Source: Marsupella aquatica (Eukaryota > Plantae > Marchantiophyta). From it: a stretch of DNA of 64,000 bases. The stretch is from the NCBI GenBank assembly GCA_973895155.1, contig OZ316891.1, positions 17,169,995 to 17,233,994 on the forward strand, read 5' to 3'. Below the pieces are notes generated by a model. The model saw only the letters and a program-made list of their open reading frames with translations, was not told the origin of the DNA and did not search any database. Shown piece after piece: positions 1,214-37,650 of this stretch; positions within the stretch are counted from its first letter, which is position 1, and every line of letters begins with the position of its first letter. Made by a program: the position numbers and the translations under genes.

Positions 1214-4200
1214 TGTGGTGCGTCCCATGGCGCCCAAAACCCAAGAAACCCCCCGGCACAAGGCGATTCCCGTAGGTTTCGTCCTCGACGAGGCCGTTTC
1301 CACGGCTTAGCAGCATGGGACGCTGCTAATCTCCTCTACTACTACGATTAACATTTTACACACATATACTGGACAGATCCTTCATCGGGTCATGAGATAC
1401 TTAGCCGGCCTATTCTAGGCCCTCCCTTGTATTCCTCTCCTAGTCTTCCATTAGGTATGTTTGGATTCCGCCGCCGGAATGATCCCCAATTGGCTTGGTT
1501 AAGCCGCTAAGACCTCTCTCAGCTCGACACATCCATCTCTCACTCCCTTGCTACTTCCCTTCATTGATGTGGGCACTCTTCACACAAGTTAATGCGACAC
1601 ACAAATAGCAAAATGACTCCTTCTAACTGAGTTATACCATGCACTTGCCATACAAACAGTACATCTCATACACAAGCTCTGCGAACTAAGCCATGAGGCC
1701 AACTCTATTCAGTTCTTAGGTATGAGGAAACATGAATATACACAAGGGTCACTGTATAACTAACCGAGAGCTTCTCTTACTACTTGATCCCAGCCCTGCT
1801 GGTGCAACTAAAAACTTGCTAAAGAAGAGGCCCTTAACTCCCCGCAGCCCAGGTACTTATCCTGGTTGTGATCCGCCTGATTCCTTGTAGCGTAAGCCTA
1901 ATCTACTTACTGTAATCTACCTAACTATAATCTACCTATGTACAGCGAGATAGGAGCACAAGTGTCGCCCTCACTCGTGGATCCGCAATCCCTCTAATCT
2001 AAGTGTCAGGGCCGTCTCCTGGTCCTGATCCTTAGTCTAAACTTGGAGATCAGCGCCCGCCCTGCCCACTCACGCCTCCTACCTCCACGTCCGCCCTCCC
2101 TAAAAGGGACGGCTCCCTTACACCATCACGACCCTGGTGGCTGGTCCTCAATGGACGCCCCCAACGCTTCCTCTGCAGCCACTGCCGTTGGTCAGTCCTC
2201 TAACAGATTACCTGCCCCGGACCGAGTCAACTCTTCATCGGCTTGACTGGGTCCACCCTCGGCTTGGGCCTCAGCATCGGCCACGGCCTCCCCGACATGT
2301 TCTAGTGGAGGATCTGGTACCTCGGCTTCATTATTGGTTGTCCTGGCCTCGGCCTTGCCATCCCCACTTCCTAGGACTGGTGGATCCACCGCCGTGCCGA
2401 TGCCGGAGGTTGGTGCCGGGTTTATCTTCTCGGTCACAACGGCTTGAGAAGCAGTATAACTCCCAAACCTAGAAGGTTTCCGCTTCTTCTTCTTCCCTAT
2501 TTCGACAGCCGGTTCCTTCCCCTTGCCACTTACCTCCGGCACCGGGGTGAGTGTCTCGGCTTGTCCTTTGGCCAATACTACCCCTGGTAACTAGGTTGCC
2601 CCAATTGGAGTTGGACCTGATGAAGCCAAGCATTTAAATACTGCGGCTTGTTTCTTCAGCCGCTCCGTTTGGTTGTCGGCCCGCCGCTGTAGGTTCTCCA
2701 TCTTCCTCGTGATTTCCTCCAACTCCTCCTGGGTCTCGTCCAGGTCCTTGCGCGCCTCCTCCAGCTCCTTTCCGGCTTCCTCCAATTCTTTCTTTAAGGT
2801 AGCCCTCTCCTCCTGGGTTGCTCTTAGCTCCTTGTCAAGCTCTACTACGACCATAGACTTCATCTTATTCATCTTGGCATAAGTCTGGTCGAGCTGGTTG
2901 TCCTTTTCATGCAGGTCGGCCTTGAAGCTGGCCGTCAGGGATGCAAGCTCCTGCTGCAGTGCAATAATCCCTTGATAGGATTTCCCTAACTCTGCTTCCT
3001 TCTGCTCAAGGGCTCCGCGGATATCTTCGAGCTCTCCTTTCAACGCCCTCTCCCTTCTCTGAGTCTCCGCCATGGCCCGGTTGTTGGCGGTTAAGTGGGC
3101 CTCCTCTGCGTCCCTTAGCTCCCGCTTCCATTTCTCTCTTTCCTTGACTGCGCCGGCCAACTCTCCTTGGGTCCGAGTTAGTTTTTCTTTGATAATCTGA
3201 TTGTCAGACTGAGCGGTATCCAACTACCCCTGCATGATGTTTAGCTCATGCCGCTTAATCTGCAGCTCATCTTGGGCTTTCTTGGCCACCTGCAGGACTT
3301 CCACCTCGGCTTCCTTCTCCCTAAGCCGTCGGATGACCTCGTCCTTCTTGCTTCTCTCCAAAGATGGCTTCTTCTAATCGGTGCTTCTCCAACCTCTCCC
3401 TCTGGAAGAAAGGTCCCTGCTCCAACTCCTCCCCAAAGCTGCTGAGCGCCAGGTCCCCACACATCTCCCCGTACTCCATGGCTCTATCTTTAGCATAGGT
3501 GGAGTAAGTAGAAGTCATCGGCAACAACCACCTCGGCCTCTGTTCCCAAGCTGCCTTGCGAATTTCTTCTACGGTGGCAAGAGGGTTGCTTTTTTTTTTC
3601 GGCAAGCCGCTTGATGTCCTCCGGCCAATCTCCTCCTGGTAAATCTTTCTCTAGCCAGGGCTGCCCTCTCTTCCTCCCTGAGTCGCTCCTGAAAATCTTG
3701 TGTCGTCTGCTTTATGCCGTCAAAGCTCGGGGGAGCAACCTCTGGTGGGGGAGACTCGGGGCTACTTTGCTGGGTGGGGTCCCCTCGAACTACTTTTGGA
3801 AGCATGGGGATAAATCGGCCATAGGTCCTTACTCCTGGAACATGATGATCCGACCCATAGCTGGAGTTATCATTACTGTAGTCCTCCACCGCCTCCTCCA
3901 CTGCTTGGACTCCCTGCTTCCCCCTCTGTTCCCCTGGTCCTGCCGTGAAAATGGCCTCACAGATCCGGGCCCTTGTTCCTCCTCTGGGTTCCAGGCTGTC
4001 CTCTCCCTCTGCTCTCCGTGGGAAGGAGCCTTAGGCTGCTCTGCCTCCGATTCAGGGCTTGAGGCTCCCACATACATTCGCACTCCCGGCTTGTGTTCCG
4101 GCCTCCTTCTCTCCTTGGCTCCGGTAAAGGGGTTTTCCCTCCTGAGTCGGCTTAGGCCGGCCTCTGGGGCAGTGTCCTGTACCGGTGCCGGTGCCGTTGC

Positions 4201-5929
4201 CGTTGCTGGTGCCGTTCTCTCCTTCTCCAGCATTTTCAATAGATTCTGCATGCCTGATTGCTGCATCGGCAAGTCTTCTTTCCTTGCCCGAAACACCTGC
4301 TCGATCATAGGACTGACAGGCTGGTTGGGCTCTTCTGTTGTCGGCCTTTGCTCCGGAACCTCCTCCGGTGCCCTTGCCGATAGGGGAAGTATTGGGGCAA
4401 AGATTTGACTTCTGGCATACCGGCACAACAGCGGCATGTGATAGCCAAGTTGGGACACGCTTCCCACGCCGATCACCTACTGTTCCTCCTTCAAGATTTT
4501 CTTTAGTTAGTTGAGGAGGTACCCGTTGTAATCCCGACTTGGGTCTAGCCTTTCTGCCAGGTAGACCTGAGCCTTGCCGATCTCTGCCCTCGGCAAGTTA
4601 CAATGCATGGTCACCCGCAAGAAATCAATCATCTCTCCGATGTGCGGGTTGGTGCAGGTGTTCCGGAAGAATCCATTCTTCATTGATGGTCCTGGGAACG
4701 ACCGGAACTCCTTGTCAGGTAAGGTCTTCCTGGTATCAACCTTGGTCTTATTACCCATCGGCAAGCCAAACACCTCGGCAATCACCCAGGGAGTGAGATA
4801 GAAATCCTTCCCATACACCCTCGTGGAATTGGTCTCGGGTTCCCATGATCCCACGAATTCTAATAAGTCTAAGTCCGGCACCTCCGGCTTCAGCCATGGT
4901 AATCTTACGAAGGCTTCCAAGCCGGATCCGGCCATGAAGCCCTGGTACTTCTTGGTCTGCATGGCCGTAAAGCATGCATCCTCCTCCCGTGCAAAATGTA
5001 ATTGCACTTCCTCTGGTAGGGTCGCCGCCCAGCCTTTCCAGGTGTCATCATTTGTTGGAATGGCATTGATGGGATCAACCTCCTCCTCTTTGGCTTCTCC
5101 CTGCCTCCTGTTCTGCTACTCTGCTGGATTCCTTGGTGCCGCTGACCTCATTTTTTTTCCGGGGTGGCCTCTTCGTTGTTGTTTCCTTTCCTCTCCATCT
5201 CGGCTGCCGTGGATGTTTCTCCTAGCACAGTTGCCTTTGTCCACCCTTCCGTGCTACCCTTCAACTCCCAGTGCACGTCGTTGCAGCGGTTGATGGCTTC
5301 CTGAATGCCGACGATTTTGTCTTCACAAAACAAAAGGTCATCGAGCTGATTGGCAGTAGGAGTCCACAAGAACTCAGCCTTGATGAGTTCTCCTCCTAAG
5401 AAGGCAGACTTCTGCAACTCCCATAGTCGAGCGAGCTCCTGCCATTCTCAAGCTGCTCTCTCCGATTCTTCGTCCTCGTAAGTCCCAATGTACTCAGTTG
5501 CCCGTTCGAACAGGCATCCCCAAAAATGTGTCGCTTGATTGACGTTGCTCATACCCTCCTTGACTCGATCGTTGGTATCTGTTCCCACCCAGAGTGCTTG
5601 CATAAGTAGGTGACAATATTTGGCCTCTCGTAGTCGTCTGCCCAGTTTGTGCTTGCAAATGAGCCACTATTCCTCAAGAGCGGTCCTTACCCCACTCCTC
5701 CTCTGGTCTTCCTTCCCGTTGGTCACCCCTAGCCGCCGACGCTTAGCGCACCCTAACCCTAATCGTGTTCTCTCCCCCGACGTCCTTACTTCCGGCCTCG
5801 GCCCGGGTTCCATAGTCACCCTTAATTGTTTATATTTTCCTTGTCTTGTTACTATACTAAGGTGTTTCCAGGGTACACTCCTGCTTTTACCATGTAAACC
5901 GGCCTAGTGATTCCTGGCTAGGCATCACA
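1214..5929 (-). mobile_element. 4716-bp TGT...ACA insert (insert 1), putative giant gene-bearing solo LTR
   Basis: Splits the LINE RT. Starts TGTGGTGC and ends GCATCACA (7/8 inverted match). CTTCA is duplicated at 1209-1213 and 5930-5934. No gag, PR, RT, INT or internal direct repeat seen. Confidence 0.85.
2060..5813 (-). pseudogene. Insert-1 gene: plant-mobile-domain-like region, low-complexity linker and long coiled coil
   Basis: ORF 4507-5007 has GLEAFVRLPW...LTPWVIAEVFGLP...KNGF..C....EMIDFL. ORF 2591-3223 is a heptad-rich coiled coil. The segments are joined by stops and frameshifts, and both ends are approximate. Confidence 0.65.
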
Positions 5930-7927
5930 CTTCATTTCATCATGTTAGTCTAGGCCCTGCTAGCTGAAGCATCATCGCGGGTACAGGTAAATGGATTGAT
6001 GTCTGAAACCATTGGGCTGAAAAGAGGTGTTTGACAGGGTTGCCCACTTTCACCCTTACTCTTTGTCATTTCCACACAGCCTCTTATGGATCTCATGGAT
6101 GCAGAACTACTGGCAAGGACTAATGGGGATACAGATATCGGCGGAACTGACCCTTTGTTATCGATTTTTTGCGGATGATCTAGGAATGCTAATCCCGGCT
6201 GCAGAGGAGAGCTTTCACATGGCCACAACAGTGTTGCATTGTTATGAATCTGCAACTAGTGCTAGACTTAATCTACGCAAGTCTGTGGTCATACCATTGG
6301 CAATGATTGCTATTCCTAGGTGGTTAACAAACACTGGATGTGTGATTAGTAAGCAAGGGGAGCTGCAAAAATACTTGGGTGCTCCACTGGGGGTGGAACT
6401 ATGGACCGATCATCTCCACCGCTTTGTTCTTGATAAGATTGGTGCTCGCTTGTCATCTTGGGCAAATAAGCTGTTGTCATTTTCTGGGAGGGTCCTCTTG
6501 ATCAGACATATCCTACGGGCCATACCCGTCTACCATTCGATGTTTCTGAAAGCCTCGGAGGGCCTGGCGAAGAAATTGATAGCACTCTGTCCGGATTTTC
6601 TGTGGGGCTACAATTCTGAAGGAGGCAGAAGAATACCTCTGGTTTCTTGGGCTAGAATGGTTAGGCCTAGGATGGAGGGGGGCTTGGGGCTGAAAGACTT
6701 TTGCTGCCACTCGGATGCTCTTCTCTCGAAATGGTTCACTGGAGCATTGGACTCCCCTCACTCGGAATGGGCCTGCCTCTTTGCAGAAAATCTGAAACTG
6801 GTCAGTTGGCTGAATTATAAGTGGATCAGGAGGAACCAGTATTCTTTCAAGGATAAGATGTTGCTCTGCTTTCCCCGAGCATTCAATGGCCTCACATACA
6901 CTGGAGGGTTATGGAAGCTTGGATACAATTACGCCCTAATTTGGTCTTTGCCCCCATGGATCTTATGCCTGGTAGGTGGAATGTAATGGACACAATTCGC
7001 TGCCTTCGGGGCTTTCAGTCTTGGCCGAATGCGGACTTCACAATGGTAACCGTGATTTGTGGCCGTTTGGGCATTTGCTGCCTCCAAGATCTATGGTCAG
7101 CTGAGTTGAGAACATGGCAGGATTTGTCTGTGCAACTGGCACATATTAGAGGATTCACTACACGTGAGCGTGGCTGTTGCAGAGAGTTTCTGGAGAAGGT
7201 CTCAGAAACTGATGGCTGTAGCATGCACTATGTTACTAGAGCCCGCTGTTGGCGATGGGCGGACCGTCCGGCCCTGATGAATGCTTTTAGACTCACCAAT
7301 AGGAGGGCCTACTCTATCCTTTGCCCTACTGTAGAGGATTTTCTTAGCTTGAACCGCACTTGGGGCAACACAAAATCAGCTGAGGAATGGAAGGAGGCCT
7401 GGACTGGACTGTGGAGGTCTAACCTATCCTCACGGGCTAAAATTTTTGTTTGGAGAGTCCTGGCCTCAAGATTATTTACGGGAGTCCAAGCGGTTCGCAT
7501 AGGCAAGGGAGATGGATTTTGCAAGCTGTGTCACGGTGTCACTGAAACCATCCCCCACCTCTTTGCTCAGTGTGAGCATGCGCACAAATGCTGGGCCCTA
7601 GGTGCTCGGTGCTTCCACGACACCTTTCCTGATTACTCGAGTAGGCTACTAGCCATGTTGGATCTGACAGTTGGCAGAGAACACAGCACAATTGCTAATC
7701 TTTTCATCTTTTACCAGATCCTCTGGTCATTATGTTTAGGACAGAATGTGCATGAGTTTCAGACAAATGGCTGCAGGAAATTTGATCTTCAATTTATACT
7801 ATCGGAAGCAGCTGACCATGTTACTGCGGTGGGTGTGAGCTTGCCATTTGGCAGGCGTCGCACCAGATTGATGCGTGTCAAAGAACTTATCAATCAAGAG
7901 CGAGTTGTGTGGCTAAATAGCCGTTAG
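5930..7927 (+). pseudogene. LINE ORF2, 3' segment (RT core and zinc-finger region)
   Basis: Reading resumes right after the insert with ...SRVQVNG...RGV*QGCPLSPLLF. ORFs 6027-6986 (FADD, KYLG) and 6911-7927 (zf-RVT). Confidence 0.93.
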
Positions 7928-10590
7928 GTGCGGATCACGTCTGGCTGAGGTTATCTTTGGACCTCATGGATGTAGTCTATTGATGCCTTGGCTCATGACT
8001 GTTAGCGTGGACATTTGTGATAATTTTATAGCTGATTAGTCTATCGTGCTCAGTACTGGCCCCTGGTTTCTGGCTGCTGGCCCAGGCATATGAGAGCTTA
8101 GTTTAGTTGGTTAGTTCGCCTTGCTAGGTATTGGCCTCTGAATTCTGGTCGCGCATGGCATGCTTGGCTTGTTGCTGGCACTTGTCGCCGATTTTTGGCA
8201 AACACAGTTTGCTTCACTGGCTGTCCTTTATGTGGCGCACGACTGCTTCTGGTTCTTTTGGTGTTGTTTGCGGTGTCCCCCTGCCATGGGGTCTTTCGTG
8301 GCTACATTAATAAACAAAAAACAAAATTTCAAGGAAAATCCGTTATTTTCTATCCGAGCCCCTTTTGAGCCTCAAGCCTTTGCTTTCCCAAGTCAGCATT
8401 CTCACAGAATCTGTCTTTTGAGCAGCCTTTTTTGCATAAGAAGGCAAGACAAACGGCTTCTCCGGGGTTTCCATTGCATTCCTAGCAACTTTCCTCCGTA
8501 GTTGAAAGCGCTTCCAAAGATTCCACTCAGACCTGGAAAGTTGAATCAGATATCTTTAGTCGGATCCGAGAAAATGGTGGAATTTTGGAGACACTAACGT
8601 CACCCTTAAAAAGAAAAAAAAGACAAGGAAGCTAAAGATCATTACTCAGAAGACTCTTCACTATCTTCAGATTTAGAAGACCCGAAGTTCACCATTTTCT
8701 TGGAGGCATCATCATCTTTGGACTGTTGAGTACCATTGCCTCCATCATTGTCCTCGTTAAAATCAAAATTAAGAACAGCACGGAGTCTGTCTTGCTTCTT
8801 ACTCCCCACCTGCCGGTGCAGAGGCATGGACGTGGAGGCCTCTTTGTTCTTGAGAAGTCCAAAGAAAACTTTTGTGGCAGTGTCAAGAAACTCTTTACGA
8901 TTTTCAATCCCGACTACAAACCTCCCACAATGATCTCGAGCAACAATGTACTTCCGGCCCCGACAATCCAGTCCATGACAATATCCCCAGGGAGGGTAAT
9001 TAATTCTAAAACTGACTGCATGAAACCCACAGGCAGCCTTGAATTCCTAGCAAACGCAAGCTCCGGCAGAGGATCATTTTTTGGCACGGGAAAACCAATG
9101 AGATTGGTTATCGAAGGATCCTCTGTATGTGAAAGAGGGCAAAATTTGGGATCCTTCGGGACCCTACCTTTGGGCAAAACATGCCCAAAAACATTGAGAG
9201 TGAGCGTAAAAATCTGCACATCAAATAACGTTTTGTTCAGAATAAACATCAGATACTTCGTCAAGAATATGGAAACCATTCATGAAGAGGATATGCCACA
9301 CTAGCGCCTGGCGCTAGTGTCACCGTCAATCTCCAAAGGAGGACACAAAACAAAAACTCTAGAATAGCTCCACGCGCTATTATATGTACCTGCATATCCG
9401 AGCAAGGCCTCTACATTGGAGTGCCCATCACAACATTGTGTGTCGAGATACACTGAAATTTCTATGAATCTTGACAAGCTGCAATGACTTTAGAGACTTG
9501 GTCATAGTCGCCCCTGTGCAAAATCGCTAGCAATCCATCATCCGCTAGGAAAGGATCCATTGTTCTGAAGAAGGCACTTGGAATCGTATAATCTTGAAGG
9601 TTCCATTTAGGAACCTTCCTATCCACAAGTGTTGGTTTTAACCCAGTCGGAAGATATATGAAACCAGCATCAACTCCAAAAGCTCTTTCCTTTCCCCCTC
9701 GGACAACCCCTTTTGCTCGATCCCTAGACTTCACCAGCTCTTTCCCCCAACCTTCAATATTAGAAACCCAATCCGGCTTTTCTCCCTTGTTAAACAGGGG
9801 ATCAAAACATCTGTAACACTCGACTCCACAAAACAATGTTGAGTACACTTTTGTTTGAAATTCTCCACATCTCTCTGCAATCCAGTAGACGCAACTGAAT
9901 CTCGGGAAGAAGATCCAAGCCTATCATCAAGTGGTCCTCTCTTTTTCTTCTTCTTCATACTTGCCGCGTCCACTGGAACCACTGCCTTTCCACTCTCCCC
10001 AGGGGTTCCCGAATCTGGTGTATTTTCTGCACCAGTGTTAGCTTCAGAGGCCTGAGGAGTAGCATCATCTTTTACATCAGCGGTGGCATCCGACTTCCTT
10101 CCCCCTGAAAGACAGAGATACGTTACTAAATGGAACTAGTTCTCATAATAGCGCTCGGCGCTAGTATCAATTGGAGAGAAATATGTCATACGAACAAGAG
10201 CGAGAATCCCTTACTGAATCCTATGAGGCATACTTATGTTTTTTAAGAGATCGAGTTGATTCACTGGGAGCTGCAGATTCATTCTTGGCCTTCACTCTTG
10301 GCTTTCGGCTCTGATCAACATGCATGACATCTGTCTCGCATTTCTTCTGCAGCTCAGTTGTCAACACGTCCACTTCAATCGCAAGACCCTACTTCATTTC
10401 CAAGACATACCTTGCTGGGATTTGCAACTTTTGCAACTTCATGAAAGCGTCTTTCTCCACCTTGTCGAAAGGCAGATCCCATTTGTCAGTGTCTAAATAC
10501 CATGGGCAGTGGAGTCTCTCCCACTCTAACAAGGCTTGGGGTGGAAAATTTCCCTCAGTTCGGTACATCGAATACAGATCAACAAGATGG

Positions 10591-10647
10591 TCACCATCTT
10601 TTATCATCACCCATCTTTTATCATCACCCATCTTTTATCATCACCCA
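10591..10647 (+). repeat. 17-bp tandem repeat (TCATCACCCATCTTTTA, ~3.4 units) at a deletion junction
   Basis: Directly visible. It replaces sequence equivalent to ~27325-28135 of copy 2. Confidence 0.85.
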
Positions 10648-11764
10648 CTGGTCTTGTGGCATCTTGTGTGTATACCAAGAACCCTTGCGAGTCTTCTTTC
10701 AAATGGCTTCAAACTTTGCATAACTTGTAGCATCAATGAGGGGTTTGTAGTGCTCTAGGTTGCGTGATAAAAGACAAGAGATTTTGTCGGCATCAAGAAT
10801 CCAAGACGGCTCGACCACAACTTGTCCCAAATTACGTCAAAATCTAAATGGAAATTAGCAGCGTCGGGCACTAGTAAAACACCAAATATAATATCACATC
10901 AAAAACCCATCTTGAACTAGTAAGTCATATTAAATGAGGTTGTCCTGAACAATGACTTACTGGTTGACAGCGTGCATGGCAGCCTCGAGCTCCACGAGGG
11001 AACCTTTATCTCCATTGAAAACAATGCAAGTCACACGAGGGTGGTACTTAATGTTGTCCGGATGCTCTGCTGTCACAATCAACCACGAATACAAATGGTG
11101 ATTTCCATCAAAGACACAAAACATCTTGTCTTTCAAAAATTTGAAATCAAGATCAGCGTCACACTCTTCCTTGAACTTGTCATTCTTGGCCACCCAAATT
11201 GGGTCCCAAGAGGCTCTAATCTCATTAGTGCAAATTTGTGGAACCCCATCCGTATTTGTTGGCTGTACGTAAAATGGCATGCCCATGCGCGAATTGTATC
11301 TAGAAATCCGGAATGACTCCTTCAATTTGTCGATGGAGGCACTTTGCTTCTACAACATCCGCACCACTTCCATATGAATCAATCGACATAGAGGAATTTG
11401 TGGAGGTGTGACGCCGCCGGTACCGTGGGTAATGAGTGATTCGGCCTAACAATGCTTAGCACGCGCGTTAGGGGTATCTTAGGCCATAATTATTAGCATA
11501 ATGATAGTATTTAGGTAGCCATTATGAGTAGGAAATCATTAGTCAATAAGGGGCATTCGTGTTCGGGCTGGCGGCGGGTTGCCATCACATGCCCGGGTTG
11601 CAAGCGTGTAATGGGCCCTCACCTTTCCCCCTTGGGTCCGTATAACAAAGGCAGACACTGACACGAGCTGACCCGGACCGGCAGAGTGGCCGGGACACTA
11701 CAAGCGTGAAAGGCTCGGCCTATAAGCGACGAGGAGGCGTCAGGCAATCGACGAGCTCTCAGGG

Positions 11765-11771
11765 TATAAAA
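11765..11771 (+). promoter_or_regulatory. TATA box upstream of the insert-2 ORF
   Basis: gggTATAAAAggggg about 0.55 kb upstream of the first clear ORF segment (12314). Confidence 0.45.
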
Positions 11772-12313
11772 GGGGGCCAATCCTTTGCACTGCACCAGTT
11801 ATTCAGTCCACGCGCCAGCTTCGACCCCAGTTCTCTCGCTTATCCTTAGTCGCCTTCTATCTCCTCTGAATGTTGCACACAATCCTTTCCAGTTTGGCCA
11901 TACGATTCTGGACGCAGTTCCTGTCTATCGGAGGGCACTTGGCCGACTCATTGAAACACGCCAACCCGCGCCAATACAAAATCGAATGCAAATATGAGAG
12001 AGCCATCCGCCTAGCAGGCCACCACCACTATCTCCTTAACTTTGATTACCCATCCTAGAGCAAGCTTTACCGACCCAAAGAGATATCAAGGTACTTCTTC
12101 AACAAAGGCAAATATATCGGCTTCTAGGAGGCACTGCTTCGGCTTCCGGACCAGGTCTTCAATATCCCGGGCACGATCGACTTACAGCGACACCACTTCA
12201 ACCACATCCCCGCTCGGGTCCGGGACATCATCAACAGCGAGTCCAGCACTACCCAGTCTACAAGGGCATCTACACTTGCTTCGGAAAACCTCTACCAGCA
12301 CCTGCAGAATTTC

Positions 12314-14470
12314 ATGGCAACCGTACCATCGACTACCGGTGCCAGCCCAGTCGTGCCCATGCCCGCACCAGCACCAGCTCAGGCTCAGGCTCCGCCTCAG
12401 CCTAGCCAAACCCCACCACTAGTTGCCCCACCCATACAGGTGAGATCCGTTGTCAACGCTGTAGATCTCAGCAATGACGAAGGGGCTACGTTACCCCTAT
12501 TCAGGCGTCCCAAAGGAGCAAACACTCAGGGAGCCGGGACTACATCGCCCCCTCCCCAGGCCCGGACCCGAGTAACGGCTCCAGCGGACAACATGGTGAC
12601 CGTAGCCGCTCCGGCCCCAATACTAATGGTGGTGGCACTACCTATACCCGATCGAGAAGATGGGGAGGTGTCACCCTCCCCGAGCCAGTCTCGGGGAAAG
12701 AAGAGGAAGGAACCCACAGCTATATCCGGGTTACCCATGACCACCGTAGCCGCAGCCAAGGTGACAATGCACCGCATGGGGGAGAACGTGCATAAGAACA
12801 TCCTCCACCCCAAACATGCGGTGTACTTGAAGACTCAGGGGTTTGAGCACCTTGCCTCTCTCCCCTGGAACACCTGCAGGTACTACGGGGAGGACATGAC
12901 ATAATTCGTCAAGAATTATGACAACGTCCGTCAACATACTCGGCTGCGGGGGAGGAATATGTCCCTCACAGAGGAGCGGCTCAGGATGATATTCGGGCTA
13001 CCCAAGGGCTCCCGGGGGCAAAGGAGCCAAGTACCAATCCTCGAGTTTTCCCTCCAAGGGGTCAGTGGACAAGGGGTTCGTGATGAGGACCTGCCTCATC
13101 CCCGAGATAGCCGACCGACTGGAGTTCCAGAGGTACGCCCTCCACATGATGGAACCCCAGGGCGAGATCTCCACTGCCCAAGTTATCCAGGTTGAGAACT
13201 ATCAACCTAGGAAGTGGGCGTCGTACTTCGCTAAGAAGTTCCATGAAGAGATGGAGCGGCGAAGGAAGTTGCTATACATCGGTGGGAAGGCGTATTTTGC
13301 AAGCCACATCGAGATCATTCTTGAGTGGTACACCCGGTTTGATCGACAAACCCTTCCCCGGGTCAACGTAACTAAGTTGGTCCCAGCTAGGTGGGTCTTC
13401 CCGGCCCTGGACAGACGGCCCCAACCCGAGGCCCAAAGTCTGGCGGCCACGCAGGCCTCACCCACCCCACCTCCACAAGTAGCCATAGCCATGGCCAAAG
13501 TGATACCAGACGAGGCAGTAATCGCAACCTTAAACGCGATCAACCAGGCCGGGCCGAGCGCAGAATTCAAAGCGGTAGAAAACTTGGCCGAGCCTAAGGG
13601 TCCAAAAAATCCACCAATGGCTATTCCGGAGGAAAGGATGATGATGGAGGAGGACACTCCAGCCCCTTCCAACACTACATCCCCAGGGTTGGATGTCACT
13701 ACCCCGGCCCCCGCGCGAGTTGACATCTGCCCGTGCCCAAATCCGCACGGGCATACCTGGACCACCCGGAACTCTTCGTACCGGGTACATTTATGAACGG
13801 GCTTTTGGGAGATTTCTCCCAAAAGATTGCCCGGGATACCGGGGAGTTCATGGCCCGGAAGGTAGCCTACTTCTTTAATCAGGAGTTAGTTACCACGGTA
13901 AAAGCAGGTCGGGCCCAGTCAAAGGCCCTTTAGAGGATAGAGCGGTACCGGGTTGAGTCCGTGTTCCTAAAGGACAAAGTTGCGGCTCAAGAGGCTGAGC
14001 TTCTGCAACTATGACCCAAGGTTGCAGCCGCCAATGAGTTGTTAGCAAATGCGCACGCCCTTACCGCCCTAGCCAAACAGGCCAAAGCTGGGAAGGAGGC
14101 CGAGATTGCACGGCTCTGGACCCAGGTTGACAGTTTGAAGAACCAAACTGTCATTTGGCAAAAAGACCCGGAGGAGGCCAAAGAGCGGGCCCAGCGTGAC
14201 ACTACGGAGATTGCCACCCTGCAGACCGAAGTGGCACAGCTTCAAGCCAAAGCCAAGAAACAGACCTAGGTGGTGGACAAGTTGACGAGCAACGCCCAAC
14301 AACTGGAAGAGGCATGCCAGGAGGCAACTGAGGAGACGGACGTGGCAAAGCGAGAGAACGAATCTCTACTAGACCAAGTCCAACTCCTCAAGATGGACAA
14401 CGACAGACTCTGTAGGCAGCGGGATGGCCGCTCCCACTCGGACGGCTTTGGCAAGCGCACCAGGCATTAG
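12314..14470 (+). pseudogene. Insert-2 gene: Pro/Ala-rich region, plant-mobile-domain-like region and coiled coil
   Basis: QGFEHLASLPW...LTEERLRMIFGLPKG...DKGFVMRTC...DRLEF aligns by eye with the insert-1 and insert-3 domain. Coiled coil at ~13930-14470. Several stops and frameshifts. Confidence 0.65.
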
Positions 14471-16679
14471 CGGAGGGTTAGGCTTAGAATAGAACTAGGA
14501 GTAGCTAAAACAGGCTATTAGGACAAGCGCCAGCCAGAAGATAGCGGCACTAACACATTAGCTAGCCTGTGTAGAATAGATTAGACTAATAGGACAAACC
14601 GTAACCAGCTTAACAAGGATATAAGTTAGCGTAGATTCGGGCACGAGGCCAGGCTGGTCCTCAGCCCTTAGTATTTAGCAGCCCCCCAGTAGAGGCAAGG
14701 GGGGATTTTAGACTCAAAAGTTGGCCATTCGCGGTATGCGTGGGGAGTCCCAAACTCGGTGAAGTACCGGAGTGCCAAGGGGAGGGTATACGACTAAGCT
14801 CGTTGGGCGAGTGCGGAGCCGGGCTCCATTGTAGTGTATACTCCTCGACCTTGGGCCCATGCGTTCACAAGGTGTCGGGTCAACCAATCGTAAGTGTATG
14901 ATCATAAATGAATGAAATCCTTTCCCCTCAATTCCTTCGTGTAAATCAAGATTTATGTTTATGTGTAAATGCATGTATGAGTCTCGTGTGCAAGTATCAA
15001 TGTCGGGCCAAACACGTTATGCCAAGCATGCACGGGGTGCAGGTTACGGATATGGGGTTGCAAGCCGGGGTTGAGCACTTGTACTAATGGATCCGGATCG
15101 AAGGCGGTAACACAAAGGCTTAGAAGTCCGTAAGCCGGGGTCGACCCCGTGTCAACTAAGGTACGTTCCGGCAGAACACAAACTATACCTAGGAGGTGTC
15201 TGTACATAACAGTAAACACACTTAGCGCTAGTTTACGTGAGTTAGGAGCATTCCGTGCGTCCCTCCTTGCCCGAACCCTCATATTTACAAAGGATGTGCC
15301 TGTCTAAGCCAAACCCCGGGTTAAGGCCTAGGCTGACGACGTGACAGGAGGCTCCTTCTCCAATCCTCTAAAATCTTTGCCAAAGGACAAGACATGCTTG
15401 GATATGTAATCGTCCATTGAAAGTCCAGCAACACCAAAATAAACTTGTGCAACTTCCTCAATCGTGTCCATTCTCCCCCTTCTTGATTGCGCGGTTGGAA
15501 GAGTTGAGCCAATGTCTGAATGTGAATGAGACGCAGCCGACCGAGTCACGCGATGGGTGTACACAAAACCTAAAAAAGAGGATTGTGAGGACTCGAAATG
15601 ACCGACATGACTATCTCCCATCCTTGTATTACCCCATTGAGAGATATGGCGATTGCGTTGAACAAAACGTCAAACAGTATCGTACAACTCTCCTAGAGCC
15701 CCTGAGCCAATACGGAGTAACAGACTTAGGTACAAAATGTCACGTTCGAACAGGCTGCTCCTAGAGAATTACGTATCTCCCATGAGCGCCAAGTCCCCAT
15801 AGAGGGTTAAGAGATGGAGTCTCTAGCACATTAGAATGTTGCTCAATAGTAACACCAACAGAGCCGAACACTTGGAAGATTACCATTGGACCAACAATGG
15901 TCTTATACTTTGGCAGTGTGATCAGCAATCTTCAATGTTACCGTTAAAATATGACCGTTGATTGATTTAGCCTTATTGATAGCGCCAAGCGCTAGCAAAA
16001 ACAACTCTATATTACCCAATTTAAACTACTAATTTCAATAGCGCCGAGCGCCAACAAATCGACCACATATGTGTTTTTACACAATTCAAATGGATTTCCA
16101 GCCTTGAGGGACCAAATGGATGTTATTTAGAACATTTTATCCTTAAAAGTTTATTAGCGCTCGGCGCTATCATAAATGATATCCAATTCAAAGCTAATCA
16201 TCACGCAAACATAATACAAACTCATCCATATCCAAAAATATTTTCAGAATTCCACTGGTACCAGAAGGATAATTTTGAGCATTCCAATGATAGCGCCAAG
16301 CGCTAATATGGAATGTGTCACGGGTAAGATCCCTCCATCGAAAACTACATGCATTTTCAAGACTTCCAAATGACATTTGGTACAAAGATTGACTCATTCC
16401 CATAAGATAGAACATCAAAAAACACGAACTGACTCATGCAAACTTCGGCAAGGGGATGTCTAAGAGTTTGGAACTCCATTTACGGTCATTGGATTTACTT
16501 CACCAAGTCTAGAAACATCAAGTGTACACTTCAAGATTTTTTAAAAACTGGGGAGTAACCTCCCACTAGATTCCGAGACTACCATGTAGGCAAAAGATTG
16601 ACTACCATTACTACCATTACTGCAACAACTGGTCGTGGCTGTCAACATCGGACTCCACCAAATAGAGTGGGCCCGACCT

Positions 16680-16950
16680 CCGTGACAAGAAACAGGAAAC
16701 AGTGATGATCATAACAGGAAAAATAGTTGAACAAAACAGGAGAATTTGTACTATCATTGACAAAAAACGGCTTAATTTTGACCCAAACCAAAGAGGTCAA
16801 ATTCAACATCAACTCAAAAAGATGGGGAAAACGACAATTATCGGAAGATGCCTTTACTAGCGCTTAGTCCTAACCAAGCGTTCGATACCGTTACAAAATA
16901 TCATTAACAAAATACCCGCTCAACATCTACCGGAATGATCAAAGGATAAC
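16680..16950 (-). repeat. Diverged inverted copy of the non-coding block 32510-32780
   Basis: The reverse complement reads ...ttttgttaatga...ttggttaggactaagcgctagtaaa...ctcctgttttgttc...ttttcctgttatgat...tgtcacgg, matching 32510-32780 at roughly 70% by eye. Confidence 0.8.
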
Positions 16951-19004
16951 GGTTTCTAAGGCAAGAAAAGGTCATCCTCGAGAATGCATGTGAAAGAAAT
17001 CCACACGTTCAGACTTGGAAACTACAAACTGAAACCAAGTAAGGAAATGAAGTCTAGCGCCGGGCGCTAACAAAACTGAAGTCCAAGTGACAAAACTGAA
17101 GTCCAAGTGACCCGTACAATGAAATTTACACATCCGTAAAATTGTAAAAACAAATTTAGTTTTTTGTGCAACCCACAAAACATTGAGCCGTGTTGAAAAG
17201 AAACCAAATGTTGTTTACTAGCGCCAGGCGCTAACCAAAACAAGGTTACCGTTACGAAATGACAAGTCCAACATACCCGTTGAACGTAAACAAGAATACT
17301 AAGCCTTCCTATAAACCATCAGCATTATGCCTCGCTAGAATATAACGCAGTTCCGCAATGGTAAGAATCGGTTGGCTTGGGAGGATATTGTCCACAGGAT
17401 CAAGCTTGCAGATAACTTTGTAAACCCAGTACAAGTGTTTACATGGCATGAAAGGTTTCCCTCGAGAATGTCAACGAAAGAAATCTTCACAAGAGCAACA
17501 AGGGAAAATGCAAATCTGCACCCAGTAAGTATTTGCAGTTCGTAAATGTGCATGTGTGCGTATCTGGAATTGTTTTCCGTATGAATTTCCCGATGAAACT
17601 TCCATAGTTTTGATCAAAGTCATTGTTTCTTTCGTTGCTGATTCAATCCTTTTATGATATTCCTGAGTGAGATTTGATCTGGAGATCATCGCACGCCCGT
17701 TTCTTGTTTGAAAATGGATGTTGACTTGTGCAAGATCGATCTTTTCAGGGAAAATGTCAATGTTGATTCTCAGTTCAAATGGAGAAGGACAACGTGAAAT
17801 AGCACCTCCTCTCGAGACTTCAATGCCCTGCTCGTGAAGGAAATTCAACTCCAGACTTGAAAGATGAGTGCCTTTCTGTACTGGCAAAAAGTCTGGGCAA
17901 GTAGGGAGGTTCACAATACCTCGACGAGGGCGGCTCTTCCAGCAATCACGAGTGGGGCAGAACCAGATAAGCTCTGGATGGTGTTCACCTCTGAATAAGC
18001 GGTAACCTTTGATGACTATTCCGACAACCCCTGCATTTGAAGGATATCCGACCTTCTTAATTCGATTACGACACTCATCTCGATCACAACTTCCAGACAA
18101 CGTCCCATTACACTGAGGTCCAGCACCGTGTCTGGAAACTCTCCGCAAATGCCACAACCTGGGTACAACATCCACTTCAAAAAGCGAAGTGTCTACAAGA
18201 ATGAATGGAGTGGTGTTCGGAACACTTTCTGGAACTTTGGAAGATTGAGTGACATGATGGGAAACTGGAGAGCCACTTTCAGACAAATCGATAACTGGAT
18301 TCGAAGGAGGAGTTCTAAGTATCGGAATGTGCTCAAACTCGACTGAGGTCAAATTTCTCCTCTTGCAACCTCGGGTGTTTGGCGTAGTTATGAGAACCGT
18401 GTCATGTCAATGGGAGTCTTGTGGAGAGACATTCTCGGTCGCCGGACCTTTTCTTTTCATAGACTTCGTCACAAAATCCCCATTCAACGGAGAATCCCTC
18501 TCCAAATCAAATTCTGCTGCATTTGCGAGTAACATATTAGAGGCTTCTTTGAAGAGTTTTGGGGACCCTGCTTGGTCAGCTGAACGAAAAGCCAATTCAA
18601 ACACTGTTGGACCGGTACCCCGATGGAGCCCTTCACGATATGCTATATAGGCTGCTATTTGTGAGATTGCTCTGTTGTGATCGGTCTTACATCCTTCGAA
18701 CAAACCAACTGTTTTCTTTCCCTGCCATGCTTTCATGATTCCGTGAACAGCTTCAGAACCAGTGCAATTGGGAATCATCCCCCCTTCAAGTGCACTTTTG
18801 CTCTGAAAAAGAGTTTTGTCAAATTCAGTACAATATAGCGAATAAAAATAAAGTGGAACTTCAAAATGGGCGGACGAAAGGTATGAATGTTTTCATGATT
18901 ATTGTGAAGATTGAAGAAGCTATCAAGCTATTCGTACGTTAGCGCCCGGCGCTGGCAAAAACATCAATAAATATCACAAGTAGAAAAGGGATATTAATAC
19001 TAGC

Positions 19005-22000
19005 TGTAGTTTGCTATGAAGAACCAAAAACACACTTAAAGGTCTTCAAACTCGGTATTCGTTCCCATAAAGAACAAGATGGGGTTGGTTTGATAGATTT
19101 AATCAATAATAAAGAACTAAAAATGTTTTCCACACATAGTAATCAAGTTTGATTACTTTAATAAGGTACTTTGAAGATCGCTCCACAGCGGTGAGTGGTT
19201 TTCAATGACAACTCAGCATCATGTAACCATAAATTAATGAAAAGGGAATGATTAACAAAATACAAGGAAAATAATCTCAAAGTATGCTAAGGGAGTCTGG
19301 AATTGACCAAGGTTGCTCCTTAGACATAAGTCAAAATGAAAAGACTTAAGGATTCAAATCCACGTTTGCTTTTCAGATCTAAAATGCTTACTAGAGTACC
19401 TTTTAAAATGCCGTAAACATGTCTTATCCTTTCTTTCTAAGTGGTACTCAGATTAAATCTAAAAGGTAGCTACTTCAACATTTAGATGGTACTAAGCAAC
19501 ATGAAAGAAAATCCATCAATTCCAATAAGACTTAAACTCAATGAGTTAACTTTAAGAACTCAGGAGATTGCAATGAATCACCAAAAAGGAATCTATCATC
19601 ACAAGATCCAAAGATTTCTTACAAATGGATTTTACTTCTTGTGTTTATAATCAGAGGTAAAAACACAAGAAGGAGGTAAGTCTCTCCAAATGTTAAACCT
19701 AATCTCGAACTCATAGATTCATGATCAATGGGTTTAACACAAGGTAGAGGCAAAAATGCAAAACTTAACCATACTTCTACACTAGTGGTGGAGGGGTCTT
19801 ATAGTAAAAACCTACAGGGTAAGAGGTCATAGGGTCGAAGAGACATGCCTCTTCATACTCCTCAAAAAGTCAAAACAGCGATTCAGTAAGTGAAAAGCCG
19901 GAAAATGGCTAAGTAAGAACCCGTAAAAGCGTAAAAGCGTAAAGACGTAATCGCGTAAAAGCGTAAAAACATAAAGGCATAATCTGGTGAATGCGGTAGA
20001 CTTAAAGACTTACCGAATTCAACTATTTTTAACTTTCTACTCCTGGCTCGGAAAATTCTGAAAATTTTCCAGTGAGTTTCTCTATGTATAGACTACATAC
20101 TAAAGAAGTTTCATAGCTTTTAAAGCTCTATAACACATTTTAAAAAATAGGGAAAGATGCACTACTCTTAAAACTAACTAAAACACTTGGTTTCTTCCTT
20201 AAGCTTGTTGTCAGATGTCGTCTGGTTCGAGTAGCTCCACGAGGGTAACAGTCCAAGCTTGAGTAACTTCCATCAGCTCACCCTGGCGTGGGGATCCTCG
20301 AGAGTAGGGTAGGCATCTCAATTGCCTTTCAGGATACATCAGGGGCATTCTTCTCCTTAGATAACATATGTCTATTCGAAGAGCTTCTCTATATATCCCA
20401 ATCACGTCATAATTATTGCAAGTAGCAGCATATACTTGGGGATAATGGTATAGAAATTCATCAGAGTTCAGCATCCTGGAATAGAAAGGGTGAAGCCTCC
20501 ATTTGACATCTCTGAAATACCGGTTGAAGTTGGCTAGAGTTTGAGAGGTGACATTGTTCCAGATTCTCTGTTTCTCAGCTAATGAACTGGTTGAAACAAG
20601 GGTAACCTTGGGCTCTCGAGGAAGGTAAGCGTTCTGGGGAGAAGTAGATTTCTTACTCTGCATGAGAAAAGAAACCACAAAATCTAGGGCATAAGCTGCC
20701 AAATTTCCAAAATATGCCAGAACTAAATCTGGATCCTCCACCTCTACATCACCCTGAAGTAGCATCACAGCAAGAATGGGCCGGAAATAGAGAGAGTCAG
20801 TCCAGAACTCATCAAATTGTGTCATCTCCAGTCTGGAAGTTCCAAAACACCTGAGGTCGAAGATATAACTGGCCTCTGTCTTCTTGAGATAGTAGTATTT
20901 CCAAAATTCTCCAACCAGTGGTCTGTTGGCCTGCATAATCTTACAGGTCTCCACATACCTGTGCACTTGGGACTCTGGATGTCTCGGGTATCTACTCTCG
21001 ATGGTGGCATTCCGAGGTGTTTGAGTAGATGAGGTGACAACTGCTACTAAGTTTGGATTGGATCTTAAGGCAGTATCAACATCTTCAAATCCCTGCCTTG
21101 GGGATAACTCAAGAGAATTATCATAAGATCTATAAGTTTCACCATCTGAGGGTGGATCAGAGTCTTCAGGTATATCCTCTCTGACGTAAGGGTGTTCATA
21201 TTGTGACCGATTGTAGGTGGGTCTTTTTGTGGGTTCGTAGTAAAAATCAGGGCTGTAAGGTTGCGAACCTGGGCTAGGAGTGGGACTAGTAGTTGGACAT
21301 TGTTGGATCAAGTTGCTGACCACAGATGCTATCTGTCGAGGTTCACACTGTAGTATTTCTAACAAGTCATCCACAATGGCCACACAGCTGATACTATCTG
21401 TTACTGGAATAGGCTCACTTGTTTCTAGGGGAGGGGGCTGTACAGTGACAGGAGTACAGATCACAAACTCCATTGGTGCTAGTTCTCTTGGGGAAGAGGT
21501 CATTCTGACAGGACTTAGCTGATCATGAAATGGTGATCTCAAACTAACAGCCTCCATTCTCAAATTATTAACAGCGTCATATAGTCCATCATTACTGCAA
21601 CTGAGGAGAGATGTCAACTTATCAATAAGCTGCTAATTTGACTCTGCCTTCGAAGGAGTGGACCTAGTGGTCTCATGAGGAGTAGCATCAGTTGGTGTAG
21701 CAACATCGTCTTGTTGATGAATGCTCCTTACTTCTTCAGCTTCTAGTGGATCTGCATCCATAGTCCGGCTAGGGAAATTCTCATTACTTATTGATTGGCA
21801 AACAACTTCCCTGCTATGCATAGGAGAATGTGTAGGGATTTCTAATGAAGTATCCTCCATAGGAACATCAGTATTCTCCTCAACGTTCTGATCATTCGAA
21901 TTCAATGGGGTGACATGTACAATGTCCTCCATAGGAATTTCTTCTTCAATACCCAAGTCAATCAGGAGTAACCCCCTCTCTGTCTCTTCCTCCAGATATA

Positions 22001-23035
22001 AACAGTCATGAGTATAATAGAGCTGAGAGAGATAATTTTGTAAACAAGTGGTCCTCCCTGCTTCCAAGCTCCTTACTTGATCCTTCATTACATTAAACAG
22101 AAGTAGGGCCCAATTTACTTTTATAGCTCCACTGTGAGCAGCTACAATGGTGTTAGCCAAGGCCATAGGACAGAGAGTTGGCTTTTTCGGATGAAGAATG
22201 GGTACCAGAAATTCCATGAGCACTCTCAATTTAGGATAAGTACACTGGGACAAGTTCCAACCATTCTTGGCATTTCGAGTTCCTGAGAAGTATGGAGCAG
22301 ATAAGTCCTGCTTCTTGGAATATAACGCCTCTCCTTCTAACGGGCATCCAAAGGCGTAAGCAATTTGCTCAACAGTCCACAGGCTGGGGTGAGCTCGAAT
22401 CGTTTGCCTGAATTCAATCGGGATGATAGTCCCCTTCACAAAATCCTGCAAGTAGGAGTCGAGCTCGACATTCCAGGAGATCCTGAGCAAGCGCTCCAAT
22501 CCTAAGTGTTGTAAAGAGTCTTGTAAATTAGAAAGACTATCAGGCGCTCGTGGTATACGAGCTGCCACTACTTTTGAGACTGCTAGAGCTTCAATTTGAT
22601 ACTATTCCTCAACACCCAGGTTCGCCATAGCTGCAATGGTGATTTGCGTGCTGCGAAGGTTGCTTTCGAAGAGAAAGAGCAAGTGAATAGGGGTGGTGAA
22701 AATACAGGAGTGAGCGCCTGAACTCTGTGCTTGATTCCTATCAAGGTATGAAGTCCCCAATTTGTTTCTAAGTCCCGTTGCAAAGTTAGTCGTAGCGCCG
22801 TAACGTGAACTTTCCTTAAACGCGTAAGGCGTAAGCCGTAATCCCGTATTGGCGTAAACTCGTAACAGCGTAAACCCGTAAACCCGTAATGCTCTTATGC
22901 GTAAATGCGTAATCCCGTTATAAAGTATATCCATAGTTTACACTTGGCATTTTAACAGCAACAGCAGGCTTAAATACTGTAAAAAGTTTAAATTTTTCAG
23001 TAATTTCAGGTTTTTGATATTACCCAATACTCACA
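19005..23035 (-). mobile_element. 4031-bp TGT...ACA insert (insert 3), putative giant gene-bearing solo LTR
   Basis: Starts TGTAGTTTG and ends CAATACTCACA. CTAGC is duplicated at 19000-19004 and 23036-23040. Sits inside the transposase intron. Confidence 0.9.
20211..22628 (-). pseudogene. Insert-3 gene, ~805 codons in one frame with two in-frame TAG stops; plant-mobile-domain-like N-terminus and unknown C-terminal domain
   Basis: ATG at 22628 is in frame with ORFs 21633-22568 and 20211-21617. Contains LGLERLLRISW...KNGWNLSQC...LMEFLVPILHPKKP...ANTIVAA...VNW, a motif seen in bryophyte TE-associated proteins. Confidence 0.75.
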
Positions 23036-32775: not shown

Positions 32776-33463
32776 GGGGAAAAACCTCATTTTAGGACTG
32801 GAAAACTTCCTGTGCTCTGTTTCAAAATATACTCCTCAGCTCAAGTCGACACCCGAAATTCGTATCGGATCTCTATGTGTCGTTCCAAGGCTGCATCTTC
32901 ATGATCTTATAAAATTTTGTTATGATCATTTTGATGTGATGGTCTGGTCTATTCTCGACGATAAACTGGTTTATCAGATACTTTCAGAAGTGTTGTCGAG
33001 CACCGACCTGTCGCAGCTGATATATGTGTTCACGCGGGATCATTGCTGGAATCTTGGTTATGTGAAGAAAAATTATAAGACTGTTGTCTTCAAATCTATC
33101 GAGAGACTACGTGATATGTTTCAAGATTATCGACCAGACAATATAATCCAGATTGATGTCTGTCCTTCCCATACATGCCAGACAGCTGTATGCGGATTAT
33201 TGTTCGCTAAGTCGTTTCAAGGATCGTTGGATGATGTCTTTTTGAGGGATGACCTCATTCCATATTTACGAAAGCTATCAAATTCAGGGCTTTGTCTTTC
33301 GTTCGCTAACAAGTTCGATTATCCCATCTGGTTGATTAGAAATCTACATCGAGATTGGGATCTGAACGAGGATATATGGGAGCATCTATACGTGCAGAGA
33401 CATGCGGATCAAGTTCTTATCAAGCACTTCAACAGACATCACTTATCAATGGCCAGAGTGTAG
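32776..33463 (+). CDS. FCP1/SCP (NIF) HAD-phosphatase-like domain 1, catalytic motif lost
   Basis: NLILGLENFL...PRLHLHDLIKFCYDHFDVMVWS...VFTRDHC...VFKSIERL...NIIQIDV matches the NIF pattern, but DxDxT is replaced. 5' boundary approximate. Confidence 0.75.
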
Positions 33464-34278: not shown

Positions 34279-35827
34279 TTTGTATTGTCATTCTAGAAAC
34301 CATTTGTAAACTCCTTATATACTGGTTATCATATATAAAGGATCTCAAAGATTTATTTCTCTATTATTATTATTCGTGTGAGCATGTCTCTTGGTCCCGT
34401 GAAGTTGGATTGGTTAAAATGTGACGTTGCAGTCATTTTTAGGGTTTCATGCGCAGCCACGCGTCATGTCGCCCCCTTTTTATTAAAATAATAATATTTA
34501 GTGATTTTCGGAATTTCCAAAGTTTGGTTTTCCTTAAATTGGGGTTTATTCCCCAACTATCATTCTTGAAGGTAGCAAATTGTGATATGAGTCATCACTT
34601 TTTACATTAGTCTGGAACTCATGTTGTTTGAAGTTACATAATTATGCATGTTTCTTGCATCATTATTATGATGCTTCTTAACATCCCGAGAGTGATTCCC
34701 TCTAATTTGTATTTGCATGATTGCTCGATTGTAGACACACCAGTGCATTCAAAAGCAGGATCACCTCACACTACTTTGTTACAAGCACCAACGCCTGACA
34801 CCCTTAACAGACTGCCAGTTCATGATAACTTTTGGCAACACGTACCTGGAGGGCATTGCCGCACATAACATCCACATCAATTCCAAAACATGTTAATGCC
34901 ACCAGTGCAAGAATTGGCAAGAGAAATGGGTGAATGTTGACACTGGGGAGAATCGGCCACTGCCCACTAGCAGTGCAACTGGTTTTCACACCCCCATGCA
35001 ATCTCGCAAGGACAATGTCCAACCTACTACACCAAGACCAGCACCACCTTTGAAGGGTACCCAAGGCAGCATCCCAGGCAGCAAAAGAAGCCCTCTAAAG
35101 AGAATAGGACACCTTCATTCTCTGCTATCTATGTTGACAAGATTGCCCAAAAGGCAGATTACCGGACAGAGTTAATCCAATTCAGGGACAAGTGGAAATT
35201 GCAAGACCTTGAAGAGCGTCGTGCAGCTAGATTGGAGGCTTGTGAAAAAGAAGTTGTAATCCATAATTGTCTGGACTGGAAGCATCAAATTGCACTACAG
35301 CACGTTGCATTAGAGAATGCCATGAATGACTACACTATTTGGTAGCTCAAAGACCCCAGACAAGATTAAGTCCTTGTTGCCTATTCTAGATGAAGAGTAG
35401 TCTTAGGATAGTCTAAAACACTAATTGTTTGGGCCTTTGGGTTCCTCTCATTCATGTAAGATTTCTTAAGTTTTTTCCCAATATCAATCACTTGTTTTTG
35501 CTTGTCAATGCAAATTTATGTTCAACAAGCACATACCCGCAACATGCTTTATCATATCTGCTCAAATGAGAGATTACAAAGACCAGAGTCACCAACATGA
35601 TCAACCTAGAGTCCAAGTGTGAACCTGAACATACTAGGAGTGAGAATATAGTCCCTGAAAGCGTAAGCACATAAAAACATAACTCCCTAAATGCATACTA
35701 TTGCGTAAAAGCATTATGACCTAAACGCGTAAACACATAAAAACATTACTCTCTAAACGCGTAAACAGGTAATCTTCTATTCTCCCATGGTTGCTTAAAC
35801 TGAACTCATTCTTGAACTGGCTAATGT

Positions 35828-36091
35828 ATCGGGGTTTCACTTCCACAAAAATGGCACATCATGTGCGACGAAGGATAGGGTCATTTTATTGGTTCAAGGG
35901 AAGACTTAAGAATTTTTGCCAAAAAATAATAGGGTCTTTTAAATTCAATTTTGAGATTTATAAGAACATTAGGGTCTTTTTAACCAACATTAGGGTTGGA
36001 AAATAATTATTATTTTCTTACATTTTAGGGGGTCCAAGGCCTAAAAATTTTGCAGGGTATGGGGAGGCATCCATATAGTAAGACCCCCGAG
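35828..36091. mobile_element. ~264-bp MITE-like DNA transposon with 8-9 bp TSD
   Basis: (G)GCTAATGT flanks both sides (35819/20-35827 and 36091/92-36099). Ends are (A)TCGGGGTTTCAC...GTAAGACCCCCGAG. Confidence 0.75.
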
Positions 36092-37551: not shown

Positions 37552-37650
37552 CTCGGGGGTCTCACTATATGGATGCCTCCACATATCCTGCGACATTTTT
37601 AGGCCTTGGACCCCCTAAAATGTAAGAAAAAAAAATTTCAACCCCTATAA
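37552..37650. mobile_element. Truncated second copy of the same MITE, opposite orientation
   Basis: CTCGGGGGTCTCACTATATGGATGCCTCC...GGACCCCCTAAAATGTAAG is the reverse complement of ~35992-36091. Confidence 0.75.

Follow-up and report, generated by a model that had tools for sequence, protein, structure and literature searches.

Three insertions in a 64,000-nucleotide stretch of the genome of the liverwort Marsupella aquatica (contig OZ316891.1, positions 17,169,995 to 17,233,994; hereafter the window, numbered from its first letter) are likely solo long terminal repeats (LTRs) of three Ty3/gypsy families, in which an LTR of 4–4.7 kb contains an accessory gene. We put the probability of this reading at about 0.7 for the three inserts taken together, with a higher confidence for insert 3, where a contig from public sequence data places a polypurine tract (PPT) directly before the start of the unit. 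The three are as follows, each with its target-site duplication (TSD); insert 1 lies in the reverse transcriptase (RT) gene of a long interspersed nuclear element (LINE).

1214..5929, minus strand: insert 1 (4716 bp, TSD CTTCA), a likely solo LTR within the LINE RT gene
11407..15346, plus strand: insert 2 (3940 bp, TSD GGAGG), a likely solo LTR within a gene that belongs to a large DNA-transposon-like unit
19005..23035, minus strand: insert 3, solo LTR and the best supported of the three, 4031 bp, TSD CTAGC, with its 5' end at 23035, the boundary of the family

The inserts are discrete insertions

The first-pass annotation had described three mutually divergent TGT...ACA inserts with 5-bp TSDs; their coordinates, ends and duplications all proved exact, and blastn finds no DNA similarity among them. 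The short imperfect inverted ends that it noted are present, but comprise just 3–8 bases. Chance could account for the end signature taken by itself, since the window holds 65 TGT..ACA pairs that lie 3–5.5 kb apart and have a 5-bp duplication. That these three are real insertions follows from their target sites. Excising insert 1 in silico makes the LINE RT frame continuous again, and excising insert 2 does the same for the frame of its host element, of which an insert-free paralog (~26470–27280) aligns straight through the insert 2 site, the left flank running to paralog position 995 and the right flank resuming at 997. For insert 3, contigs from three of four public runs (X1, X2 and X4) join 18998 directly to 23035 and thereby represent the empty site, the 4036 bases that they skip being equal to the insert plus one duplication. 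Each insert is thus a discrete insertion with TG..CA ends, a 5-bp TSD and one broken accessory open reading frame (ORF) carrying a shared domain.

Solo LTRs are recognized as single units with TG...CA ends and a TSD of 4–6 bp, and all three inserts have this form. As first reported, none contains an internal LTR pair (blastn) or an internal direct repeat of its own start, and none retains gag or pol, as tblastn with the gag, protease and pol of a related Ty3/gypsy element (L001, described below) returns no remnant within them. Nor is there a primer-binding-site (PBS)-like sequence inside any of the three, and no gag/pol, PBS or PPT adjoins them.

Accessory ORFs and their shared domain

The ORFs and the domains within them are placed as follows.

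2192..5813, minus strand: insert 1 accessory ORF, with a read-through length of ~1206 codons and ~11 breaks
~4923–4610, minus strand: shared domain within the insert 1 ORF
~3500–2594, minus strand: long coiled coil within the insert 1 ORF
11870..14469, plus strand: insert 2 accessory ORF, with a read-through length of ~866 codons, ~9 breaks and a coiled-coil-like C-terminus
~12827–13130, plus strand: shared domain within the insert 2 ORF
20211..22628, minus strand: insert 3 accessory ORF, with a read-through length of ~804 codons and 2 in-frame stops
22577–21957, minus strand: insert 3 N-domain, VANC-like by structure model
~21050–20214, minus strand: insert 3 C-domain, conserved and helical, without a matched fold
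35340..38460, minus strand: insert 4, a decayed relative of insert 3 that the first-pass annotation had overlooked

Each insert had been credited with one long ORF. A single coding direction does hold for each, but all three frames are broken and are long only as read-throughs; the copies in the window are dead. The insert 1 ORF also has a basic KKKKRK run close to its C-terminus. The non-coding sequence 3' of the ORFs, estimated earlier at ~0.9–1.2 kb, measures 978 bp (insert 1), 877 bp (insert 2) and 1206 bp (insert 3). Breaks number 31–43 per 1000 codons in these 3' parts versus 2–10 in the ORF frames, a difference to be read with the caveat that in inserts 1 and 2, both GC-rich, the reverse strand is fairly open too.

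The shared domain is real, though distant. Scored with a profile built from 103 homologs, insert 3 reaches 221 bits and insert 4 reaches 127, and the values for inserts 2 and 1 are 24.2 and 20.1, whereas the maximum among 1000 shuffles per insert was 7.5 bits, and the domains of inserts 1 and 2 match each other with an E-value of 3e-19. A HMMER search returned 308 relatives of the insert 3 protein, the longest among the 150 listed being 808 aa; an open relative of 808 aa (P0001) is 76% identical to the insert 3 protein in the N-terminal domain. In the Atlas comparison, 25 of 30 matches of the domain were to Transposase_32 and three to ATHILA (Atlas score 0.92, 169 shared features), from which the domain appears to be an LTR-element accessory domain of the Transposase_32/ATHILA kind. 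Pfam gave no family at threshold for it in the window ORFs. No homolog of the insert 1 domain was found among longer proteins, which is weak evidence, and neither viral contigs nor prokaryote genome contigs yielded a related locus.

Insert 4 shares 54% of amino acids with insert 3 in the N-domain. Over 144 codons the two differ by dN 0.35 and dS 2.4 (dN/dS about 0.15), values which suggest purifying selection on the accessory domain. No convincing ends or TSD were found for insert 4, which has an internal 87-bp inverted repeat (36005–36091/37552–37638) and abuts a fragment near 38470–38600 that we take, by resemblance, to be Harbinger-like. Between the insert 3 ORF and the contigs of its family, 18 non-synonymous and four synonymous differences occur among the 40 of 1048 matches listed; we read these as decay of the window copy and not as a test of selection.

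Position of the gene relative to the LTR

Scanning metagenomes for the domain identified 36 loci (L001–L036). One of them, L001, is a Ty3/gypsy element that assembled as a circle, with gag, protease, RT, RNase H and integrase and without a match to aRH or a chromodomain. It is a distant relative from another organism, with 38% identity (aa) in the domain. Its features beyond pol are these.

3757: PPT-like tract 1, after pol
4213–6447: homologous ORF, in sense, between pol and the LTR
6560: PPT-like tract 2, before the LTR, near-identical to tract 1
6574 onwards: LTR of ~990 bp, starting TGTGA
7576: PBS-like TGGCGCC

The TGGCGCC site is presumably of the tRNA-Asp type of Athila; Diaspora and Calypso are described as tRNA-Asp primed (PMC1142308). 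Read in the sense of the ORF, all three inserts start with TGTGA while their 3' ends are unlike one another, and the same TGTGA starts the L001 LTR, where it is preceded by a tract ending in GCTA. The inserts show no DNA similarity to that LTR.

For insert 3 the boundary itself could be inspected, by aligning contigs of the four runs (X1–X4) to 22905–23095. Among the 32 of 87 pieces listed, six end at 23035 coming from inside the insert (X1, X3 and X4; depth 16–1571). Past 23035/23036 there are four loose ends; three of these are unrelated sequences, and the fourth, from X1, carries GAGGAGAGGGCTA directly before TGTGAG. This is a polypurine tract ending in GCTA, the form of both L001 tracts, and only 2 of 127,978 22-mers in the window have that form. 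The insert 3 unit therefore starts at an LTR start, as seen in one contig, and since no second LTR start lies within the unit, its ORF lies within the LTR. Inserts 1 and 2 are assigned as likely solo LTRs because they share the TGTGA start and the domain and lack gag/pol, a PBS and an internal PPT; the earlier proposal of solo LTRs is supported, with a direct test in the case of insert 3.

Two candidate signals were rejected. At 72 bp past the insert 3 ORF, TGTGT is preceded by a T/A run that as a PPT remnant is indistinguishable from chance, and a loose end at 19026 (X3) is too mixed in sequence to be read as a PBS; among the 24 of 863 loose ends listed, none lies at 19005, the 3' end of insert 3.

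The layout of L001 invites a more conventional explanation, namely that the inserts arose by deletion or recombination from Athila-like elements of the ordinary kind, each insert being composed of a piece of 5' LTR, the internal ORF and a 3' LTR of ~1 kb. Apart from L001, which has exactly such a layout, this would fit the read depth, which is greatest over the last kilobase of insert 3, and a contig in which the ORF is absent (see below). It would however demand two deletions in each of three unrelated inserts, because no insert has a second copy of its 5' start ahead of the 3' part, and a scan that recovers both L001 tracts detects no PPT-TG junction downstream of the ORF in any of them. Family contigs moreover pass from the insert 3 start into the motif cluster upstream of the ORF, at depths up to 1011. 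We consider this explanation improbable. The case that the first-pass annotation had named as telling against gene-bearing LTRs, an ORF outside the LTR in full-length relatives, does occur in the distant relative L001 but not, as far as tested, in the insert families.

The alternative named in that annotation, in which an integrase-like (Ginger-like) transposase mobilizes the inserts as non-autonomous cut-and-paste elements with the accessory gene as cargo, has lost ground and in our judgement is very improbable. It would account for TGT...ACA ends without gag/pol, for unrelated flanks in three of the four sequences beyond the insert 3 start, and for the presence of the domain on a DNA transposon of another plant. 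Yet the inverted ends extend over 3–8 bp and not tens of bases, no integrase is found in the inserts, the ends are asymmetric with a common TGTGA start matching that of an LTR, and in one contig a PPT precedes the start of insert 3. The DNA transposon in question is represented by the remaining 35 of 36 metagenome loci (L002–L036), which form one family whose left end is CACTA in 22 of 23 checked. One member, in another plant (L004, 9100–~14000), contains the word TCGCAA 28 times in its non-coding DNA, and the domains of L004 and L008 give a dN/dS of 0.24.

Several observations weigh against solo LTRs with an internal gene. The domain, being carried by a CACTA-ended element as well, is not diagnostic of LTR elements, and Pfam recovers it in only one of 40 members (E 0.005). 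In L001 the homologous ORF lies outside an LTR of ~1 kb. The PPT link consists of 22 letters in one contig from one of four runs, and the read-contig boundary evidence is confined to insert 3. Paired giant LTRs, a PBS after the 3' end and pol upstream of the PPT were not seen among contigs that are short. Summed depth over insert 3 is uneven (in X1, 30–100k over the 3' kilobase vs 4–8k over the 5' 600 bp), a pattern that relatives of the ordinary layout, present in greater numbers, would explain as well. Finally, one X2 contig joins 19935 to 22851, between two motif clusters, skipping the ORF. Relatives of the insert 3 family with short LTRs may coexist with the gene-bearing form.

Predicted fold and function of the accessory protein

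The structure model of the insert 3 N-domain (pLDDT 96, built from 40 sequences) has as its best match among 48,161 chains the anti-silencing protein VANC21, with Z 6.8 and an rmsd (root-mean-square deviation) of 4.0 over 187 of 203 residues. A second VANC21 entry reaches Z 7.0, the two entries (PDB 9LNK/9LNJ) spanning 187–190 residues at rmsd 3.9–4.0, and the next fold follows at Z 4.2 over 58 residues. Foldseek also places VANC21 first. Because the match covers the whole domain and is separated from the next by such a gap, we favour it, although in absolute terms it is weak: Z is below 8, a range in which, the fold tool cautions, a match may be a mere common arrangement; identity is 8%; and Foldseek gives E 0.92 and a TM-score of 0.43. 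The viral structure library contained no match for the N-domain model, a sequence search of PDB gave nothing meaningful, and the C-domain of insert 3, with a best Z of 3.5, was assigned no fold. The Atlas leads for insert 1 include DUF1985 (0.88) and PMD (0.85), both under 0.9; PMD-C and DUF1985 are reported to be structurally alike (bioRxiv 10.1101/2024.09.27.615353, PMC13547354).

VANC21 is described as binding a short motif that is clustered in the non-coding DNA of its element and as removing methylation there (PMC5735166). Candidate elements of such an arrangement in the window are listed here.

22799..22912, minus strand: TTACG cluster 1, 11 words in the insert 3 5' leader, candidate binding motif
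19922..19966, minus strand: TTACG cluster 2, 6 words after the insert 3 ORF
19797..19804, minus strand: TATA-like motif CTATAAGA, ~800 bp before the insert 3 3' end, candidate LTR promoter
11765..11772, plus strand: TATA-like motif TATAAAAG, upstream of the insert 2 ORF, candidate

The 11 TTACG words fall within 150 bp, against at most five in 200 shuffles. Insert 4 has clusters of the same word, and in insert 3, insert 4 and L001 alike the ORF is flanked by clusters of a word specific to the element, in L001 AGCGCT, which clusters ahead of the ORF, within the LTR and ahead of gag. The TATA-like motifs that had been placed after the ORF are borne out in insert 3, whereas the insert 2 site at 14672 (TATTTAG) is weak and inferior to the one upstream of its ORF.

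We tentatively predict, at somewhat less than even odds, that the accessory protein is a VANC-like DNA-binding anti-silencing factor. There is a serious possibility that the LTR layout is right and that the protein has another role, such as chromatin tethering, integration targeting or particle assembly. To this the weak fold scores, the long coiled coils of inserts 1 and 2 and the unmatched C-domain of insert 3 all lend weight, as does the lack of any word cluster above shuffles in inserts 1 and 2, a point against the anti-silencing prediction in its own right; the role of Athila-type extra ORFs is moreover described as unexplained (PMC7264820). On the side of an anti-silencing factor, VANC21 ranks first in two programs with the whole domain spanned, and the word clusters vary between elements, as VANC targets are reported to do (PMC5735166).

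Surroundings of the inserts

By its repeats, the window belongs to a land plant. A large DNA-transposon-like unit (~8300–34300), the ends of which were not found, surrounds inserts 2 and 3. It contains two inverted paralogous gene sets (8345–11397 vs 26603–30566), an N6/N4 methyltransferase-like frame (29657–30289; PF01555, E 1e-5), two NIF/FCP1 phosphatase-like frames (32657–34278) and, between 9303 and 32582, 21 copies of the palindrome AGCGC-n3-GCGCT, to one of which the insert 3 target is directly adjacent (position 23038). Farther along, an ordinary Copia element occupies 42863–48892 on the minus strand, with 324-bp LTRs that are 97% identical and a Met-type PBS.

Comparison with known systems

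Retroviral ORFs in U3 are known from mouse mammary tumour virus (MMTV sag) and human immunodeficiency virus (HIV nef), where the gene is copied into both LTRs. Those ORFs have ~200–320 codons and are unrelated to the ones described here, which differ in having 800–1200 codons and filling 60–77% of the repeat. For an ORF inside a plant LTR, phrase matching of the openly available literature returned nothing relevant, and passages of PMC13468544, PMC12859917 and PMC12885004 make no mention of one.

Among plant elements, Athila is a non-chromovirus of the OTA superclade with a sense extra ORF (ATHILA PF03078, Transposase_32 PF20167) between pol and the 3' LTR (PMC6317226, PMC11728184, PMC7264820), and OTA elements are described as having extra ORFs in the internal region and LTRs of up to 5 kb (PMC6317226, PMC7264820, PMC11728184, PMC3485330). 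The inserts share with Athila the 5-bp TSD and perhaps the kind of accessory domain (Atlas 0.92), and the Athila-like L001 has gag, protease, RT, RNase H and integrase with the ORF in sense after pol. The extra ORF of Athila is internal, however, whereas that of insert 3 lies within an LTR-like unit, after a PPT-linked start, and any membership of the three insert families in the Athila lineage is tentative. Ogre, BAGY-1 and Retrosat2/RIRE3 share with the inserts LTRs of 3–5 kb and the formation of solo LTRs (PMC6317226, PMC1142308, PMC3485330), but in these accounts their extra ORF (ORF0, Ogre ORF1) is upstream of gag-pol and none is described inside the LTR. VANC21 and VANC6, of the VANDAL Mutator-like transposons, may resemble insert 3 in the predicted N-domain fold and in clustered short non-coding words (PMC5735166); they differ in their 8% identity, the lack of a sequence-level match and the carriage of the inserts' gene by a retroelement. 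The PMD-C proteins MAIN and MAIL1 (bioRxiv 10.1101/2024.09.27.615353, PMC13547354) belong in the same comparison, and VANC is dicot-specific according to PMC13547354.

Proposed origin and significance

The gene-bearing LTRs could have arisen from an Athila-like ancestor resembling L001, in which the ORF was located after pol and ahead of a 1-kb LTR and was bordered on each side by a PPT-like tract. If the downstream tract were lost and a TG followed the upstream one, plus-strand priming would shift upstream and the LTR would take in the ORF, which from this new LTR start would be copied into both LTRs. A full-length element with two gene-bearing LTRs would then have integrated, and recombination between them would have left one. 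Each unit should accordingly start right after a PPT, as is seen for insert 3 in one contig and is presumed for inserts 1 and 2. An origin by insertion of the ORF into U3, in place of a PPT shift, looks equally plausible. Within such an element, the N-domain is predicted to bind short CG-containing words clustered in the non-coding DNA and to lift methylation as VANC21 does.

A broader and distinctly speculative proposal, which we think rather unlikely to hold in full, is that of a radiation of plant Ty3/gypsy elements in which a move of the priming site put a VANC-like gene of 800–1200 codons into the LTR. Each solo LTR would then be a self-contained cassette of promoter, target words, gene and terminator, able to act in trans and hold its family free of methylation once the element itself had gone, and VANC-type counter-defence would be far older than the dicots and common to LTR and CACTA elements.

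If the LTR does hold a gene, such units would be overlooked or wrongly classified by annotation tools designed for LTRs that are short and non-coding. For the extra ORFs of the Athila type, long without an explanation, the predicted VANC-like domain and the clusters of candidate target words next to it suggest a function that can be tested. The formation of solo LTRs is a way in which genomes delete retrotransposon genes; a gene within the LTR, if this is what the inserts represent, would survive that deletion.

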